From Escherichia phage vB_EcoS_VAH1: a DNA stretch of 64,000 nucleotides. The DNA is taken from the sequence record MK373792.1; one strand, 5' to 3'. The position numbers and the translations under genes are program-made. Below the pieces are notes generated by a model. That model was not told the DNA's origin, did no database searches, and saw only the letters and a program-made list of their open reading frames with translations. Shown piece by piece: positions 39,136 to 63,889 of the stretch; the first letter of the stretch is position 1; each line of letters opens with the position of its first letter.

Positions 39136-40665
39136 TTAGGTAAGGCGTTGAACTGTTACTCTTAATCTAGGTAGGAAAACTGCGCTACCCAAACTCACGT
39201 GCATAACTACTCCTAACTCTACATTTCCATTTCCTAGATTTTTAACGGTATATATAAAACTGTTTCTACTAAGAGCATTGTTAGGTGTATATCTAAAAGC
39301 AGATGTAGTATGAAAAGGTACTAGATAACCCACAGGTAGCGTTAAAATCTGGTGGAATATTGCATCTCCATTACTATAACTATGCGCTTTTCTTCCTTGT
39401 ACTTGAAATACACCATTATTCCATGTATTAGCTGGAACACCCGCACAATTAAGATTACCTGATATAACTTCAGTAGTAAGAATTACGGTAGCATTTCCGC
39501 CTGGTATACCTAGCCCAATAGTTGATAAACCAACGTATCTATCCCCAGTTCCTGGATAGTGGGGTGTAATATCATCTCCCATATAAGAACTACCTACATT
39601 TCCACTAAAAAGTCGAAGTGGAACTGCTGATGGTCCCCAAACAATCCCATGTTCATTACCAATAGTATTATTATTTGAGTTTACATACCATTGTTTACCG
39701 GCCCCAAATTTATAAATACTAATTTGAGATTTAGCCCCTCCGTAATCTACAGGAGACCACAACCCTCCATTACTAGACCCTACAAGTTCACACCTTGCAG
39801 TGGTATCCCCAAAAACCCCAGTATACGCTGCGTTATTCCCTATATACTCCATATCAGGACGGTAACCTAGGTTACCAAAAGCATTCTGATTTATAAATTT
39901 ATACCCGGTATTAGGGAGACTTACCCCTTTAATTATGAAATTAGAAGGAGATATAAGAATATCAGAACCAGTAAAGGGATTGCCTGAAATACTCATACCT
40001 CCATTCGAGTACCTTAAATTAAGAACATACCAAATAACCTTAGTAGGAGTTATATTATACCAGTCCTGTATTACCGTAGGATTGCCAGACTGATTAGCCA
40101 AATTAGTAGTAGATCCCCTACAAACAAATCTGTTCCCACCGTCGTGGTACATAGTATTTACACTACCTGGGAGCCCTTGCCTAACCCCACCATACCCACG
40201 TATATTAGAATTACAAACATAAAACCAATCATGCCCTCTATGCGCTGCTCCTAGAGGTGACATCCATCCGGGATCCCAATAGTACGGGTTATTCCCATCT
40301 ACAGGTACTGTACTACTGTTAGTAGGAAACCCTAATTGTGCAAAAGCTTCTGCAACAGTAACACCTACAGGAGCTCCCGCACCGGGCCTAACTATACCAT
40401 GGTAGGTACTATGTAATGTAGTACCCCCTGTGCCACTCCTAGATATAGATTCTTCATGCCCTAGAGAGGGATTATAATTATAAGTTCCAGATGCTAGACT
40501 ATTACCAAAGGCAAATCCACTGGTTTGAGAAACACTAGCAAAAGATCTAAAGGGATCTGCCTGGGTGGCAACTATAGTTTGACCAACTTTACTCTGAGTA
40601 CCATTAAGAAAAGCTCTGTGAGTACCATTTATCTCAATAGCAGTTAGTAACTCTACCTGGGTCAT
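39136..40665 (-). CDS. receptor-binding tail protein (T5 pb5-like), C-terminal part
   Basis: 509-aa Gly/Asn/Thr/Ser-rich ORF next to a divergent llp-like lipoprotein gene; overlaps the preceding 85-aa ORF by 32 nt in another frame. Confidence 0.55.
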
Positions 40666-40891
40666 TAGATTTAATATTTATTATGTCAGAGGGCATTTGA
40701 CATACAAAAAACCCATTCCCGGCATTACCTAATGCAGCCTCATAAGTACCATCAACTAGGACAAATGGCATATCACTATGAAAAATACTATTGGCATTTG
40801 GACTATAGTGACGATTAATGTCACCACCAGATTCAGTATTTAAAGATAGTACGGTCTTACCATCGCTATATTTTCCAGCGAAAAAACCCAT
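40634..40891 (-). CDS. receptor-binding tail protein, N-terminal 85-aa fragment
   Basis: Strong RBS AGGAGA before the ATG at 40889-40891; ends in frame conflict with 39136..40665. Confidence 0.5.
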   Translation of the reverse strand: MGFFAGKYSDGKTVLSLNTESGGDINRHYSPNANSIFHSDMPFVLVDGTYEAALGNAGNGFFVCQMPSDIINIKSNDPGRVTNCY

Positions 40892-40916
40892 ATAATCTCC
40901 TATTATAAAAATGTAT

Positions 40917-40945
40917 TTGCTTTCATCCCTCTATTTTGCTATAAT
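40917..40945 (+). promoter_or_regulatory. sigma70-type promoter for the llp-like gene
   Basis: TTGCTT (40917-40922), 17-bp spacer, TATAAT (40940-40945). Confidence 0.55.
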
Positions 40946-40976
40946 AGATTCATAAATTAGAAATGGAGAGATAAAT

Positions 40977-41243
40977 ATGAAAAAGTTTGTGATTGCACTA
41001 GTTGCCGCAGTTATGTTGTCTGGTTGTGCACCTACCCCCAAACCATTTTGTACGGGATTTGTAAAATCTTTTGGCGGTGCTGGGGAGGAGCATTACGGCC
41101 TCAAGGTTCAAAAAGTTCGTATTAAGGGAGATCGCTTCCCAGTAGTACAGCTCCGTACTAAGTTTGGGTGGTGGGATCTCAGTCAGTTTGACCTTAAATA
41201 CGGTGATTGTAAATTTAAACTAGAGCAATCTAACTACCTGTAA
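40977..41243 (+). CDS. llp: lipoprotein, Llp-like receptor-blocking/superinfection-exclusion candidate
   Basis: Signal peptide with lipobox LSGC (MKKFVIALVAAVMLSGC); divergent to and adjacent to the receptor-binding protein gene, as for llp/oad in T5. Confidence 0.65.
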   Translation: MKKFVIALVAAVMLSGCAPTPKPFCTGFVKSFGGAGEEHYGLKVQKVRIKGDRFPVVQLRTKFGWWDLSQFDLKYGDCKFKLEQSNYL

Positions 41244-41419
41244 TTAGTATAAAGCAAAAAGACATCCAAGTAAACTAAATTTTTTATTTCTTGGATGGTG
41301 TACTGGCAGAAACCACTATATAAGAAAAGTAGAAGTCCTTCTAGGAGTTCACAGGCACGGTTGGTTGTACACAAATTATAGAATATTTCAAAAATCACAT
41401 TTATAGGAGTATGAAAGAT

Positions 41420-41548
41420 ATGTCAAACAAAAGAAAGAGCAGACGCGGAGAAGTGTACGATAGCTGGATTAATAGTTTTGGACTTGGTACTATCCTATTC
41501 TTTATTTTCGTAGGTTTTTGGTTAGCAGCTATGGCGGGGTGGATTTAA
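41420..41548 (+). CDS. small membrane protein (42 aa)
   Basis: Basic N-terminus plus one TM helix; RBS AGGAG about 10 nt upstream; stop overlaps the next start (TAATG). Confidence 0.4.
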   Translation: MSNKRKSRRGEVYDSWINSFGLGTILFFIFVGFWLAAMAGWI

Positions 41549-41655
41549 TGGAATGGGTAATTATTGCACTACTAGGGATTGTGATTATCGGGCAATGTAT
41601 TTTAGATAATCACTTAGCTAGAATTGAAACCTTATTAACGGAGAAACGTAAATGA
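41548..41655 (+). CDS. small membrane protein (35 aa)
   Basis: One TM helix; translationally coupled to its neighbours. Confidence 0.35.
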   Translation: MEWVIIALLGIVIIGQCILDNHLARIETLLTEKRK

Positions 41656-41846
41656 TGGAAGTAGTAGCTACACTAATAGTAATACTAGTATGGGCAACTT
41701 TCATTGTTTCTTATAACGCGTATGTTCGCCTAAAAACTCTAGAAGCTCAAGTAAAACAACAACAAGTTACTCTAGAAAAGCTAGTACTACTGCAACGTTG
41801 TGATAGCACCCGTATTCTGCAAATTGAGAGGGAATTAGATGTTTAG
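41652..41846 (+). CDS. small membrane protein (64 aa)
   Basis: N-terminal TM helix followed by a coiled-coil-like tail; ATGA overlap with the previous ORF. Confidence 0.5.
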   Translation: MMEVVATLIVILVWATFIVSYNAYVRLKTLEAQVKQQQVTLEKLVLLQRCDSTRILQIERELDV

Positions 41847-42057
41847 TATTATAATTGCTTTTATTATCGGGGTACTTGCGGGAATTTTCGGAATGACTGC
41901 GGCTATTAACAAGCATCGTAAGTATACTGCGGAAGTATCGCGGGAGATTGCGGAAAGGGAGCGGAAGTTTGACGAGAAACGTGCGGAGTTTGAGCGGGAG
42001 TGGAATGATGGTTCAAGAAGTTCTCGGAGGAGATTCAAGATAGATGGCAAATCATAA
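41839..42057 (+). CDS. small membrane protein (72 aa)
   Basis: N-terminal TM helix and a charged C-terminal tail. Confidence 0.5.
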   Translation: MFSIIIAFIIGVLAGIFGMTAAINKHRKYTAEVSREIAERERKFDEKRAEFEREWNDGSRSSRRRFKIDGKS

Positions 42058-42541
42058 ACCTCTACTTCCCTTAGCAGAATACCAGAAGAAATTTGATTAT
42101 GACCCTGAAACCGGTATGTTTACTTGGAATTCAGGGAGTCGTAAAGGTAAACCAGCAGGTAGTAGAAATAGTTCAGGAATATCCCTATCAATGGGTAGTA
42201 ATGGGCTATATAAGGCCCATCGGGTAGCGTATCTATACATGACAGGAGAAGACCCGGGTGAATTTCTCATTGATCACAAAGATCAAGACCCCTTCAACAA
42301 TAGGTGGAATAACTTACGTAAAGCAACAAATGCAGAGAATGGAAAAAACTCTTCGGGATGGAAGAATGAGTCTACAGGGGTTAAGGGAGTATATAAACGC
42401 GAGGAGGGAAAGTTCGAAGCAAAACTACGTGTAAATGGTAATAGAATTACCATAGGAACTTTTAAAACTCTTGAGCAGGCTGAAAAAGAACTTAGAAAAG
42501 CCAGGGAGCATTACCACGGTGAGTTTGCAAACCATAATTAA
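42044..42541 (+). CDS. HNH homing endonuclease
   Basis: PETGMFTWNSGSRKGKPAGS...YKAHRVAYLYMTGEDPGEFLIDHKDQDPFNNRWNNL; same family as 2199..2732 and 9787..10263. Confidence 0.8.
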   Translation: MANHKPLLPLAEYQKKFDYDPETGMFTWNSGSRKGKPAGSRNSSGISLSMGSNGLYKAHRVAYLYMTGEDPGEFLIDHKDQDPFNNRWNNLRKATNAENGKNSSGWKNESTGVKGVYKREEGKFEAKLRVNGNRITIGTFKTLEQAEKELRKAREHYHGEFANHN

Positions 42542-42716
42542 TTAGCGCTATTAACCTTTTTGCCAAATTCTTTGGATTACGTACGCGTGGGTGTGCTCAC
42601 TGCCACCGGCGAAAATACTTAGTCTGCTAACCGCCACCCCCGTTACTATTACCATGCTAACTGTTTCACCCTGCAACCATTTTAATTGCAAGGTGAAACA
42701 ATTTCAACTTTAATTA

Positions 42717-43451
42717 TTACGCAACTTTTAATTTCTCAATATACTGTTGCGGGCTGCAACTATATTCTGCGCGTTCTTCTTCAGTCATACCTTCCCAACA
42801 TAATTGCAAGCGATCGGCTAGGAACTGATAATCATTATCATCCTCAAGAGATTCGTCAATAAAGGTTTCACCTATCAATGTGACACCGATTGATAGAATA
42901 TCATTAACGGCTTGCGCGTCCAGCGTTTTAAATCCGTATGATGCCGCCGCTGCCAATACTCCCTTATGATCGTCGATCATCGTGAAATCAGCGTTCGGAT
43001 ATAGCTGTTTAAATAGCTCAAAGTAATGACTTTTATATATAGCGTCCTTACTGTGGTATATTTCGCTAACCTTATCAGCTTCAAAATATTTGTGAAGCGT
43101 ATCGCGGGAAAATACACGGATATTACTATTTCCACGCCCTCGCAGTCCTTGTTTGCGCAGGTAATAATAATCTGACTTGCTCATCAGTCGAGCGGTACAA
43201 ATAACGTTTAACGTGTTGGCGTCATTCATGCACTGGCGCATATATGTAACAAGCGGCAATAGTGTATCTTGCATTATTAAATCATGTTTGCAGGCTTCAT
43301 TTTTATACTTATTTAAATCTAAATTGCCCTCGCTATCAAAGCAAGGCGCTACGCGATGGAAAGAATTGATGATTGTTCCGTCCAGATCCCAAATCATGAC
43401 GCGGGAAATATGCGGGAAATTACGGGTAATATTCGTTTTAACTTGATTCAT
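42717..43451 (-). CDS. dmp: 5'-deoxyribonucleotidase, HAD-superfamily (T5 dmp-like)
   Basis: HAD motif I IWDLDGTI; 244 aa; adjacent to the A1/A2-like genes. Confidence 0.75.
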   Translation of the reverse strand: MNQVKTNITRNFPHISRVMIWDLDGTIINSFHRVAPCFDSEGNLDLNKYKNEACKHDLIMQDTLLPLVTYMRQCMNDANTLNVICTARLMSKSDYYYLRKQGLRGRGNSNIRVFSRDTLHKYFEADKVSEIYHSKDAIYKSHYFELFKQLYPNADFTMIDDHKGVLAAAASYGFKTLDAQAVNDILSIGVTLIGETFIDESLEDDNDYQFLADRLQLCWEGMTEEERAEYSCSPQQYIEKLKVA

Positions 43452-63472: not shown

Positions 63473-63889
63473 TTAATCTACTACATGTATAAATCTTTTT
63501 CTAACTAGATACATAGTTATTGGGTAAATTGAGTACATAAGTATCGGGGAGAAAAGGGTGAAATACGCTGTAACTCCCCCAGCTAACATCAAAGGTATTA
63601 ATGCTAGAGTAAGGGCCATAAGAATCATACCGAATGAAACAGCCAAAGCTATGGATATAGGATTCTCTAGTTCCATCCATAACCAACAATATTTCGTATC
63701 TCTATGGCAATTGCATTTACAAACGCCGAATGAACCCATAATTATATACTCTAGTCCGTGAATAACCTTTATTAATAAGCTATTTCGGGTAGTTAATGCA
63801 ATGATAGTAAAGACTATCATTAAAACGAATACTACTAGACTTATTTTCCAGATACCTAGCAGCATCATAGTGAATAGTTCTGCAAACAT
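63473..63889 (-). CDS. integral membrane protein
   Basis: 138 aa with about four hydrophobic helices. Confidence 0.5.
   Translation of the reverse strand: MFAELFTMMLLGIWKISLVVFVLMIVFTIIALTTRNSLLIKVIHGLEYIIMGSFGVCKCNCHRDTKYCWLWMELENPISIALAVSFGMILMALTLALIPLMLAGGVTAYFTLFSPILMYSIYPITMYLVRKRFIHVVD

Follow-up and report, generated by a model that had tools for sequence, protein, structure and literature searches.

T5 is a model phage, and four conserved hypothetical genes adjoin its well-studied pb5/Llp module. A comparable group of genes had been noticed in Escherichia phage vB_EcoS_VAH1 (record MK373792.1), in a window, the whole stretch of DNA analysed, of 64,000 nucleotides. A preliminary description made from the letters had likened its architecture to holin/antiholin/spanin-like or superinfection-exclusion modules. 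What are these genes, and what could their products do for the phage? The block is compact and easily cloned, and hundreds of Tequintavirus and Epseptimavirus isolates that are candidates for therapy carry it.

Identity and coding capacity of the four genes

Four consecutive small ORFs (35–72 aa) were found on the + strand exactly at 41420–42057, between llp and a terminal HNH gene, in agreement with the preliminary description. The genes of the locus are:

40977..41243, + strand: llp, receptor-blocking lipoprotein of the BF23/BtuB type, 88 aa, lipobox LSGC
41420–41548, + strand: ORF1, 42 aa, orthologue of T5.159
41548–41655, + strand: ORF2, 35 aa, orthologue of T5.160
41652–41846, + strand: ORF3, 64 aa, orthologue of T5.161
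41839–42057, + strand: ORF4, 72 aa, orthologue of T5.162
42044–42541, + strand: HNH homing endonuclease ORF, 165 aa (Pfam HNH_3, 50.5 bits; PHROG 99)

The llp product matched the Cor/Llp family (PHROG 1119, E 2.6e-26) and Pfam LPAM_1, and is 97–99% identical to Llp of BF23 and SSP1. Comparison with T5 (NC_005859) showed that ORF1–4 correspond to T5.159–T5.162, annotated as 'contains single transmembrane domain', with protein identities of 100, 97, 80 and 87%, respectively. ORF1 matched PHROG 8596 over its full length (E 3.8e-32), while ORF2, ORF3 and ORF4 aligned, over practically the full length of both protein and profile, with PHROG 6369 (E 2.8e-26), PHROG 5851 (E 4.7e-34) and PHROG 6447, 'membrane protein' (E 7e-43). 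The last family is categorized as 'moron, auxiliary metabolic gene and host takeover'. We therefore assign the cassette, in identity and anatomy, to the T5.159–T5.162 operon with high confidence. ORF1–4 were already known as annotated T5 genes; this is a re-identification of hypothetical genes and not a discovery.

T5 has the same gene order and overlaps, with the genes likewise placed between llp and the right terminal repeat, and the synteny (strand, order, location directly behind llp and ahead of the terminal repeat/dmp) is common to T5, BF23, SSP1 and SelmaRatti. VAH1 and T5 differ as follows. The llp gene upstream is of the BF23/BtuB type in VAH1 and of the T5/FhuA type in T5; T5 has no HNH gene after T5.162, whereas VAH1 carries one inserted after ORF4; and this insertion replaces the last 14 codons of the gene by 7, so that ORF4 has 72 aa compared to 81 aa for T5.162. 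Several GenBank records omit or mislabel ORFs of the cassette, for example as 'tail fiber protein', and Epseptimavirus records leave ORF1 unannotated.

The coupled stop/start codons described earlier were also confirmed: TAATG joins ORF1 to ORF2 and ATGA joins ORF2 to ORF3. In addition, ORF3 and ORF4 share 8 nt, ATGTTTAG, and the start of the HNH gene overlaps the end of ORF4 by 14 nt. Each of the four starts is preceded at 6–11 nt by a Shine–Dalgarno-like motif. For ORF1 this is a conserved AGGAG at 41405–41409; as the alternative ATG at 41411 lies merely 1 nt past this motif, too near to it, the start proposed earlier, 41420, is the plausible one.

Could such short ORFs have arisen by chance, or through annotation, in an AT-rich spacer? 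Their length, the level of about 1 TPM recorded for ORF1 and ORF2 in the Bas33 expression table (see below) and the GenBank records in which several ORFs are missing or misannotated would speak for it. However, selection on them is frame-specific. Median pairwise dN/dS was 0.09, 0.14, 0.33 and 0.32 for ORF1 to ORF4, and pN/pS in the annotated frame was 0.13, 0.14, 0.55 and 0.28, compared to 0.5–2.7 in the +1 and +2 frames; purifying selection is thus limited to the annotated frame. The proteins are conserved over their full length down to 44–83% identity between genera, the Shine–Dalgarno sites are conserved, and the block is transcribed. Both the TAATG and the ATGTTTAG junctions occur in 28 of 28 loci, and TAATG is re-formed where genes are missing (ORF1 to ORF4 in smaug, ORF2 to ORF4 in five loci). 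ORF1–4 are therefore genuine protein-coding genes, the chance-ORF explanation having practically no likelihood, and the preserved overlaps fit translational coupling.

The claim of one transmembrane helix per product was upheld as well, each protein having a single uncharged stretch of 19–24 residues with a mean Kyte–Doolittle hydropathy of 2.2–2.6. In ORF1, a basic N-terminus with five K/R precedes a C-terminal helix. The other three have the transmembrane helix at the N-terminus, followed in ORF2 by a short C-terminal helix (..HLARIETLL..) and in ORF3 by a heptad-like helical tail ending in an invariant R-I-x-Q-x-E-R-E-L-D-V. The N-terminal helix of ORF4 bears a small-xxx-small motif (GVLAGIFG), and its helical tail is highly charged (16 K/R, 11 D/E); an AlphaFold2 model of ORF4 consists of a single long helix over residues 2–68 (pLDDT 70). 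Hydropathy and flanking charges suggest that all four insert into the inner membrane. By the positive-inside rule, on which alone the topologies are based and which finds a small charge bias in ORF3, ORF1 would be anchored by its tail, its basic N-terminus facing the cytoplasm; in ORF2–4 the N-terminus would be outside and the charged helical tail on the cytoplasmic side.

Searches of ORF1–4 against Pfam, NCBIfam, PADLOC and PDB sequences gave nothing above threshold, and an hhalign comparison of ORF2 with ORF3 for possible paralogy gave 24% probability. Sub-threshold matches of ORF4 to LapA_dom (21.8 bits, cut-off 28), ZapG-like (15.9) and FtsL (12.5) families were rejected as evidence of relationship, being below the curated cut-offs and of the generic kind expected of a transmembrane segment plus a charged helix.

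Transcription, surroundings and distribution

The features upstream of the cassette are:

40917..40945, + strand: putative llp promoter, read from the sequence as TTGCTT (40917–40922), a 17-nt spacer and TGcTATAAT
41244..41419, + strand: llp–ORF1 spacer, studied in an alignment of 29 distinct spacers

The promoter in front of llp is of the extended –10 type, with TATAAT at 40940–45. It was missed by a consensus scan because TTGCTT matches TTGACA at only three of six positions; the scan itself returned 10 sites compared to 10.0 expected from shuffled sequence. At the corresponding position ahead of llp, the T5 record annotates a promoter on the + strand, and it has no annotated promoter or terminator between llp and T5.159. 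In the spacer, a conserved hairpin (41263–41270 / 41290–41297) is predicted by the MFE as well as the centroid fold, with no U-tract after it, and the spacer as a whole is not unusually stable (RNA fold z = –0.9). The spacer also contains the decayed remnant of an acidic 104-aa ORF that is intact in Epseptimavirus. Promoter scan, alignment and RNA folding revealed no convincing promoter or terminator in it, and an Rfam scan of 40600–43000 detected no RNA element. ORF1–4 thus appear to be transcribed rightwards from a strong sigma-70 promoter that precedes llp and probably drives it and the four ORFs together. Against this, the annotation of BF23 includes a separate predicted promoter within the spacer, and a promoter-like site with 10 of 12 matches lies within ORF3 (41824–41852).

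Published RNA-seq of the related phage Bas33 bears on expression. At 20 min, llp was recorded at 219/127 TPM, an ORF2 paralogue at 162/137, ORF3 at 462/408 and the HNH gene at 525/444, all of the same order of magnitude (PMC13250531 Dataset S1). These four genes fall to about zero once daunorubicin confines expression to the pre-early genes (PMC13250531); the cassette in Bas33 is thus transcribed only after second-step DNA transfer, the single time point assigning no temporal class. Counts are uneven, with about 1 TPM for ORF1 and ORF2 and 13–22 for ORF4. The data set seems to undercount genes shorter than about 130 nt systematically: a 96-nt gene beside one with ∼11,000 counts scores 0 and 3 (PMC13250531 Dataset S1).

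Downstream of ORF4 we recorded the following:

42037..42544, + strand: facultative HNH insertion, delimited by blastn against T5 and BF23
42590..42600 (about 42594), unstranded: predicted start of the terminal repeat, by alignment transfer from T5 and BF23
42659..42703, unstranded: inverted repeat with 18-nt arms, a 9-nt loop and 89% complementarity, from a repeat search

The insertion, which supplies the last seven codons of ORF4, is missing from T5 and BF23: blastn homology stops at 42036 and resumes at 42545 with BF23 and at 42590 with T5. As the right terminal repeat is annotated to begin 42 bp past T5.162 in T5, the VAH1 cassette is likely to be the last unique block ahead of the repeat. 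The inverted repeat lies between the cassette/HNH genes and the convergent pre-early gene dmp (42717–43451, – strand) and is a candidate two-way transcription stop.

The preliminary description had named lack of conservation in relatives as one ground for refutation; tblastn found the cassette, which is under purifying selection, in 448 phage records from Tequintavirus and Epseptimavirus. ORF1 and ORF4 are present in every locus examined from these genera. ORF1 is the constant first gene and extends to Erwinia KEY, Pantoea AAS21 and Eos-like phages. ORF2 and ORF3 show loss, duplication or replacement in some lineages: ORF2 is missing from S124 and smaug and has a clear 51-aa paralogue beside it in ECOP18, Bas33 and others, while ORF3 is missing from the SPC35/fp01 group and smaug. 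Other bitopic proteins take the place of ORF2–4 in Erwinia KEY, Eos-like phages and Klebsiella Sugarlandvirus. The C-terminal tail of ORF4 differs with the downstream neighbour gene.

An exhaustive profile search covering 1.84 billion representative proteins found no ORF4 relatives outside T5-like phages, its five matches all being of the same family, nor did a word-indexed search of 5.8 billion proteins yield a remote homologue (82 matches, all at least 69% identical). An ORF1 profile search returned 32 clusters, all from T5-like phages, and viral contigs scanned with ORF1 and ORF4 gave nothing beyond further T5-likes. As far as these searches reach, the four genes are restricted to T5-like phages.

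Some deposited isolates carry internal stops (ORF3 of L027, ORF4 of NBSal003) or in-frame deletions within ORF4 (SP3, SelmaRatti). We argue from such natural loss or disruption that at least ORF2, ORF3 and ORF4 can be dispensed with, and the whole cassette is probably dispensable. In a CRISPRi-ART screen of T5, T5.159–162 were all scored 'Not Fit' (PMC11879866 source data), a result that adds little weight because the portal, endolysin and tail-fibre genes were scored likewise (PMC11879866).

Possible roles at the inner membrane

The best explanation of ORF1–4 is that in T5-like phages they prolong the llp ('lytic conversion') transcription unit as a small accessory operon. For its function, the lysis module suggested in the preliminary description has to be weighed. 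Small proteins with one transmembrane helix each, encoded by overlapping genes next to that of an outer-membrane lipoprotein, would suit a holin/antiholin pair or a spanin-like set, and the charged C-terminal tail of ORF4 is a holin trait, though a generic one that is common among non-holins. However, T5-like phages carry a separate lysis cassette. T5.041 is a holin of the T4 T-holin family (Pfam PF11031 Phage_holin_T, 396 bits); it lies with the endolysin gene T5.040 ∼20 kb from the four genes in T5 coordinates, just past the end of our window, which closes with a T5.039 homologue (63476–63889). Both i- and o-spanins of T5-likes have been reported in that cassette. The adjoining llp encodes an experimentally established receptor blocker (PMC9586334). 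ORF1–4 have no match to holin, antiholin or spanin families in PHROG, Pfam or NCBIfam and possess no lipobox: ORF2 has Q at –1 of the cysteine (..IIGQC..), and the cysteine of ORF3 sits in the soluble tail. That tail, of 43 aa, is too short for an i-spanin and is predicted to be cytoplasmic because K/R adjoin the transmembrane helix, whereas an i-spanin would need it in the periplasm; predicted cytoplasmic tails in general do not suit a spanin or an RI-type antiholin. Moreover, the genes are absent or broken in deposited isolates. ORF1–4 are not the lysis machinery of the phage, and their being lysis effectors proper is very improbable.

A regulatory part in lysis is a separate matter. The T-holin of T4 is controlled by the small proteins RI (periplasmic, with an N-terminal membrane anchor) and RIII (cytoplasmic). 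One or more of ORF1–4 might accordingly be membrane-tethered antiholins that time lysis by a holin of the T4 type: T5.041 belongs to that family, the surroundings of the T5 lysis cassette are devoid of an annotated antiholin, and ORF2–4 are small, helical and anchored at the N-terminus. However, no RI/RIII match was obtained in PHROGs (E <= 0.01) or Pfam (E <= 1), the lysis cassette is ∼20 kb away, and ORF2 and ORF3 are absent from phages of genera whose members have a T5-type lysis cassette. The predicted cytoplasmic tails would exclude an RI-like mechanism, and lysis inhibition in T5 has not, to our knowledge, been reported. This regulatory role is unlikely. Alternatively, in host takeover or counter-defence, the products would leave incoming phages alone and bind inner-membrane proteins of the host so as to modulate them; transporters, proteases, division or envelope-biogenesis factors and membrane-bound abortive-infection effectors are the targets envisaged. 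The genes are probably dispensable and vary by lineage, as is usual for such functions, the locus is a variable island in which ORF2–4 are replaced by other bitopic proteins, PHROG places the ORF4 family in its host-takeover category, and ORF4 has its faint likeness to host proteins with a transmembrane segment and a cytoplasmic helix (LapA_dom, ZapG, FtsL). That likeness, however, is below the curated cut-offs and is given by any protein of this build, ORF1–4 match no PADLOC or anti-defence family, there is no candidate host target, and ORF1 and ORF4 are highly conserved and not fast-evolving (dN/dS 0.09 and 0.32). We regard host takeover or counter-defence as a serious but doubtful possibility.

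Superinfection exclusion, the other function named at the outset, is possible given the linkage to llp. With exclusion genes the cassette shares its probable dispensability and its neighbour, llp. We tentatively favour, while conceding that it may well be wrong, a dispensable inner-membrane complex, co-expressed with llp, whose action would not depend on the type of receptor; superinfection exclusion is one example of such an action. The four products would assemble into a small hetero-oligomer in the membrane. Llp shuts the outer-membrane receptor, and the complex would complement it at the inner membrane by blocking or aborting DNA entry of superinfecting T5-like phages; alternatively, it may stabilize the membrane after injection. 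Since the same cassette follows FhuA-type llp in T5 and BtuB-type llp in BF23 and VAH1, and ORF1 occurs without llp in Erwinia KEY, its action is proposed to be independent of the receptor.

A more specific form of the proposal is correspondingly more doubtful: ORF1 and ORF4 would form the core and ORF2 and ORF3 exchangeable adaptors of a second, receptor-independent layer of lytic conversion, which would close the inner-membrane route of the tape-measure/DNA-transfer machinery of any T5-like phage. This would account for the constancy of the cassette in the face of exchanges of RBP and llp among FhuA, BtuB and other receptor types. In a variant, T5 would owe an unrecognized lysis-inhibition response to the complex, which would hold an RIII-like antiholin function at the membrane. 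The strong exclusion reported for Llp alone, more than 10^6-fold for BF23 llp (Mondigler et al., as quoted in PMC4728585), counts against an inner-membrane exclusion role. An llp-only clone, however, gave about 100-fold exclusion, which is at odds with the value for the BF23 clone of Mondigler et al. 2006 (PMC4728585).

ORF1–4 showed no similarity to exclusion families (Imm, Sp, SieA/B, gp15, Cor/Llp) in PHROGs, Pfam, NCBIfam, PADLOC or PDB. In the literature searched, no exclusion assay on T5.159–162 is reported and the genes are not named in running text; papers on BF23, Llp structure, DT57C, phiR2-01, T5 injection and T5 pre-early genes are silent on them, and the HIDEN-SEQ phages include no T5-like. 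If inner-membrane exclusion or membrane protection proved true, a receptor-independent layer would be added to T5 lytic conversion, and the design of phage cocktails would be affected, as mutual exclusion might then occur even among related T5-likes that use different receptors.

Comparison with known systems

Two-component spanins (Rz/Rz1) resemble the cassette in their small overlapping genes, and ORF3 is like them in its N-terminal transmembrane helix and coiled-coil-like segment; the nearby lipoprotein here, however, is the characterized receptor blocker Llp. In the case of T4 RI/RIII, the T-type holin that they target has family members in T5-likes, and the cassette proteins are likewise small and helical, some of them N-terminally anchored. 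However, RI and RIII have no homology to ORF1–4, whose predicted tails are cytoplasmic and membrane-tethered.

The Llp/Cor lipoproteins (T5 Llp, BF23 Llp and T1 Cor) are, like ORF1–4, small proteins of the envelope of the infected cell. The llp gene is the neighbour of the cassette on the same strand, probably in one transcription unit, and was 'Not Fit' in the T5 CRISPRi-ART screen, as were T5.159–162 (PMC11879866). Llp has a signal peptide and a lipobox, whereas ORF1–4 lack a lipobox and are predicted to be inner-membrane proteins with cytoplasmic tails; nor do ORF1–4 vary with receptor type.

T4 Imm and HK97 gp15 are small, dispensable inner-membrane proteins made by the phage for superinfection exclusion. 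They act as single proteins, whereas ORF1–4 form a coupled set of four, and no sequence similarity was detected between them. Theirs is nevertheless the mechanism class that we judge the likeliest for ORF1–4.

Layout and coding status of the cassette

Four consecutive small ORFs, ORF1-ORF4 (35-72 aa; jointly the cassette), had been placed at 41420-42057 by the preliminary description, and their coordinates, all on the plus strand, bore this out. The two proposed flanks, llp (a receptor-blocking lipoprotein gene, here of the BF23/BtuB type) and an HNH gene, were both confirmed in the window.

Features of the locus (position, strand where assigned, description)
39136-40891, minus, receptor-binding protein (RBP) gene, upstream of the cassette
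40917-40945, putative strong sigma-70 promoter of T5 type before llp (TTGCTT, 17 nt, TGcTATAAT), read from the sequence
40977-41243, plus, llp, upstream of the cassette
41420-41548, plus, ORF1, 42 aa
41548-41655, plus, ORF2, 35 aa
41652-41846, plus, ORF3, 64 aa
41839-42057, plus, ORF4, 72 aa
~42037-42544, HNH-bearing insertion relative to BF23
42044-42541, HNH endonuclease gene, 14-nt overlap with ORF4
42659-42703, inverted repeat of 18 nt (89% complementary, 9-nt loop), between the cassette and convergent dmp
42717-43451, minus, dmp, downstream of the cassette
63476-63889, T5.039 homologue

The junctions along the cassette are, in order, TAATG, ATGA and ATGTTTAG, which fits the proposed coupling by overlapping stop and start codons, and a Shine-Dalgarno-like motif is present at every one of the four starts. 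A1, also on the minus strand, lies downstream as well; the T5 terminal repeat begins with dmp and A1. The neighbourhood of dmp, A1, llp and the RBP gene indicates that the window comes from a T5-like phage, and its identity to several Tequintavirus isolates is ~92-96%. The RBP gene is broken into two ORFs, of 85 aa (40634-40891) and 509 aa (39136-40665), by a 2-nt (TA) deletion at 40647/40648 in comparison with phage ESCO40, which has one undivided RBP ORF of 585 aa; this reflects either a sequencing error or a genuinely frameshifted RBP.

As tblastn queries, the four proteins hit 448 phage records carrying the cassette. These belong to Tequintavirus or Epseptimavirus, the exception being Erwinia phage KEY, hit weakly by ORF1; conservation in relatives, whose absence would have counted against the preliminary description, is therefore present. 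For the window and 34 fetched loci, median pairwise dN/dS of ORF1-ORF4 was 0.09, 0.14, 0.33 and 0.32 (llp, 0.06; HNH gene, 0.19). In the annotated frame pN/pS was 0.13, 0.14, 0.55 and 0.28, and the two shifted frames gave 0.5-2.7, which indicates frame-specific selection. TAATG and ATGTTTAG were each invariant (28/28 loci), and where a gene is lost TAATG again joins the resulting neighbours. On these comparative grounds we regard ORF1-ORF4 as real genes; the frame-specific selection, invariant junctions and 448 records leave chance ORFs a negligible probability.

Membrane features and variation among T5-like phages

Each protein has a single uncharged stretch of 19-24 residues (mean hydropathy 2.2-2.6), in agreement with the one transmembrane helix per ORF noted earlier. 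ORF1 carries five K/R ahead of its C-terminal helix, and ORF2-ORF4 either lack an N-flank or are acidic at residue 2 or 3, with K/R directly after the helix; from these charges the soluble parts are predicted to face the cytoplasm. An AlphaFold2 model of ORF4 is a single helix (residues 2-68, pLDDT 70). Searches of ORF1-ORF4 against Pfam, NCBIfam, PADLOC and PDB gave no match above threshold. ORF4 had 82 cluster-level relatives among 5.8 billion proteins, all at least 69% identical, and when 1.84 billion representatives were searched exhaustively with a profile, five proteins came back, all of its own family. ORF1 matched 32 clusters, all from T5-like phages, and these searches revealed no remote homologue of either protein outside this group. 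The four genes are translationally coupled, encode bitopic membrane proteins and occur in T5-like phages only.

ORF1-2-3-4 is complete in most Tequintavirus and Epseptimavirus genomes, with ORF1 left unannotated in several Epseptimavirus records. ECOP18, Bas33 and two others have an additional 51-aa ORF2 paralogue (BLASTP E 5e-7); the SPC35/fp01 group is without ORF3, S124 without ORF2, and smaug has ORF1 and ORF4 only. Deposited isolates carry internal stops in ORF4 (NBSal003) and ORF3 (locus L027), and in-frame ORF4 deletions (SP3, SelmaRatti). In more distant T5-likes (Erwinia KEY, an Eos-like phage, a metagenomic contig) an ORF1 homologue comes first after RBP or llp, and the small bitopic proteins behind it are different ones. 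Two positional analogues, each combining an N-terminal TM helix with a coiled coil, are present in Klebsiella Sugarlandvirus, and Vibrio PG07 has none at this locus. None of the loci compared showed a natural loss of ORF1. By this comparison ORF1 is the constant element, ORF4 is constant inside Tequintavirus and Epseptimavirus, and ORF2 and ORF3 are exchangeable; the natural losses and disruptions make at least ORF2, ORF3 and ORF4 appear dispensable. At the same locus Klebsiella Sugarlandvirus (L064 4861-5550) and an Eos-like T5 relative (L068 2876-3898) encode larger proteins, of 153 and 183 aa. In each, an N-terminal TM helix is combined with a coiled coil and with a Ser-rich tail that has a Cys-containing motif at its end (..SSYCDSGSS..SGCSF and ..SSYDCGGSSFSPSCD).

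A T5 CRISPRi-ART screen scored T5.159-162, the T5 orthologues of ORF1-ORF4, and llp all as 'Not Fit' (-3.6 to -4.1; KS p 0.24-0.91; PMC11879866 source data). The agreement with dispensability is weak because portal, endolysin and tail-fibre genes were likewise 'Not Fit' (PMC11879866).

Expression and the downstream boundary

In the T5 record a promoter is annotated at the equivalent position before llp, and the interval from llp to T5.159 is left blank. The 176-nt llp-ORF1 spacer contains a conserved hairpin, with no U-tract, and an AGGAG, likewise conserved, that serves ORF1; we found no convincing promoter in it, and BF23 annotators predicted one in the corresponding spacer. In alignment, the spacer (41244-41419) corresponds to an acidic ORF of 104 aa that is still whole in Epseptimavirus Sepoy, EH7 and EPS7 (L005-L007 1236-1550), where it overlaps an unannotated ORF1 homologue. 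The Tequintavirus version has ~147 nt deleted and the start codon lost, and is thus a gene remnant.

In the related phage Bas33 (HildyBeyeler), with a five-gene cassette version, published RNA-seq at 20 min gave TPM values of 219/127 for llp, 162/137 for the ORF2 paralogue, 462/408 for ORF3, 22/13 for ORF4 and 525/444 for HNH, falling to ~0 for llp, cassette and HNH when daunorubicin limited expression to pre-early genes (PMC13250531). ORF1 and ORF2 had ~1 TPM each, in a table where genes under ~130 nt appear undercounted, since a 96-nt gene beside one of ~11,000 counts received only 0 and 3 (PMC13250531). Transcription of the cassette begins only once second-step transfer has taken place, and llp is probably transcribed with it. 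A promoter-like site at the ORF3/ORF4 junction (41824-41852; TTGAGA, 17 nt, TATTAT; 10/12 match) would start a transcript within ORF4 that could serve the HNH gene; in the Bas33 reads HNH is far above ORF4.

The insertion replaces the last 14 ORF4 codons with 7 (tail ..KIDGKS), and homology to T5 picks up again at 42590. On an ORF4 otherwise of its own genus type, Epseptimavirus EH7 carries this tail too, next to a related HNH (71% identical), and this sharing across two genera suggests spread by homing with co-conversion. In other phages the site is taken by at least two unrelated HNH types and by one non-HNH gene, and the ORF4 tail differs with each; residues 1-66 would therefore form the functional core of ORF4. 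The HNH gene is a facultative insertion ~50 bp ahead of the predicted terminal-repeat boundary. In T5 the right repeat begins 42 bp past T5.162, and here, judged by alignment, it should start near 42594. The inverted repeat, immediately 3' of dmp and within the predicted terminal repeat, may act as a stop for transcription converging from the llp side and the pre-early operon. Late genes, llp and cassette lead into a single pre-early (terminal-repeat) copy and, across 42594-64000, on to the T5.039 homologue, which makes the source record circularly permuted or repeat-collapsed, the genome being linear with terminal repeats.

Possible roles and comparison with T5

The preliminary description had the anatomy right, four coupled single-TM genes; its holin/antiholin/spanin-like reading was not supported. 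In T5 the holin, T5.041, falls with the T4-type T holins (Pfam PF11031, 396 bits), the endolysin is T5.040, and T5-like phages have inner- and outer-membrane spanins in the lysis cassette (PMC4342426, PMC11664485). From the position of the T5.039 homologue, this separate cassette is expected just past the window end. ORF1-ORF4 have no holin, antiholin or spanin family match and no lipobox. Lysis effectors proper are very improbable, as these functions are encoded elsewhere and cytoplasmic soluble parts, as predicted, are unfit for spanins. Antiholin-like control of the T-type holin is quite unlikely; the predicted topology does not fit RI, the periplasmic T4 antiholin, and an antiholin family match is missing.

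The same cassette genes are found after llp of the FhuA and of the BtuB type and also where llp is absent. We tentatively propose a receptor-independent membrane function complementing Llp. The proteins would sit in the inner membrane with their tails in the cytoplasm, and coupled synthesis and small-xxx-small motifs in the helices suggest a single complex, which might keep the DNA of superinfecting T5-like phages from crossing the inner membrane or protect the membrane after injection. The superinfection-exclusion role, possible as first suggested, is based on llp linkage and receptor-type independence. Modulation of host membrane proteins, or counter-defence, is an alternative of similarly low likelihood. 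One published lead is that an llp-only clone whose reverse primer ended at the ORF1 start lowered plating ~100-fold (PMC4728585); a passage of that paper gives >10^6-fold for an earlier BF23 clone, differing 'for reasons not clear' (PMC4728585), a discrepancy that could be relevant.

ORF1-ORF4 correspond to T5.159, T5.160, T5.161 and T5.162 (100, 97, 80 and 87% identity), each labelled 'contains single transmembrane domain' in the T5 reference record, and match PHROGs 8596, 6369, 5851 (unknown function) and 6447 ('membrane protein') at full length. T5.160-162 homologues are labelled 'tail fiber protein' or 'tail assembly protein' in ESCO40, ECOP18, JLBYU40 and GEC_vB_N7, and some T5-like sequences have been deposited under the names 'Listeria phage' and 'Campylobacter phage'; such labels probably reflect errors of annotation or host assignment. 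The comparison with the T5 region near llp and the terminal repeat thus makes the observation a rediscovery of hypothetical genes, already known in T5: a tidy, testable, conserved accessory module of a model phage that will not surprise the specialist.
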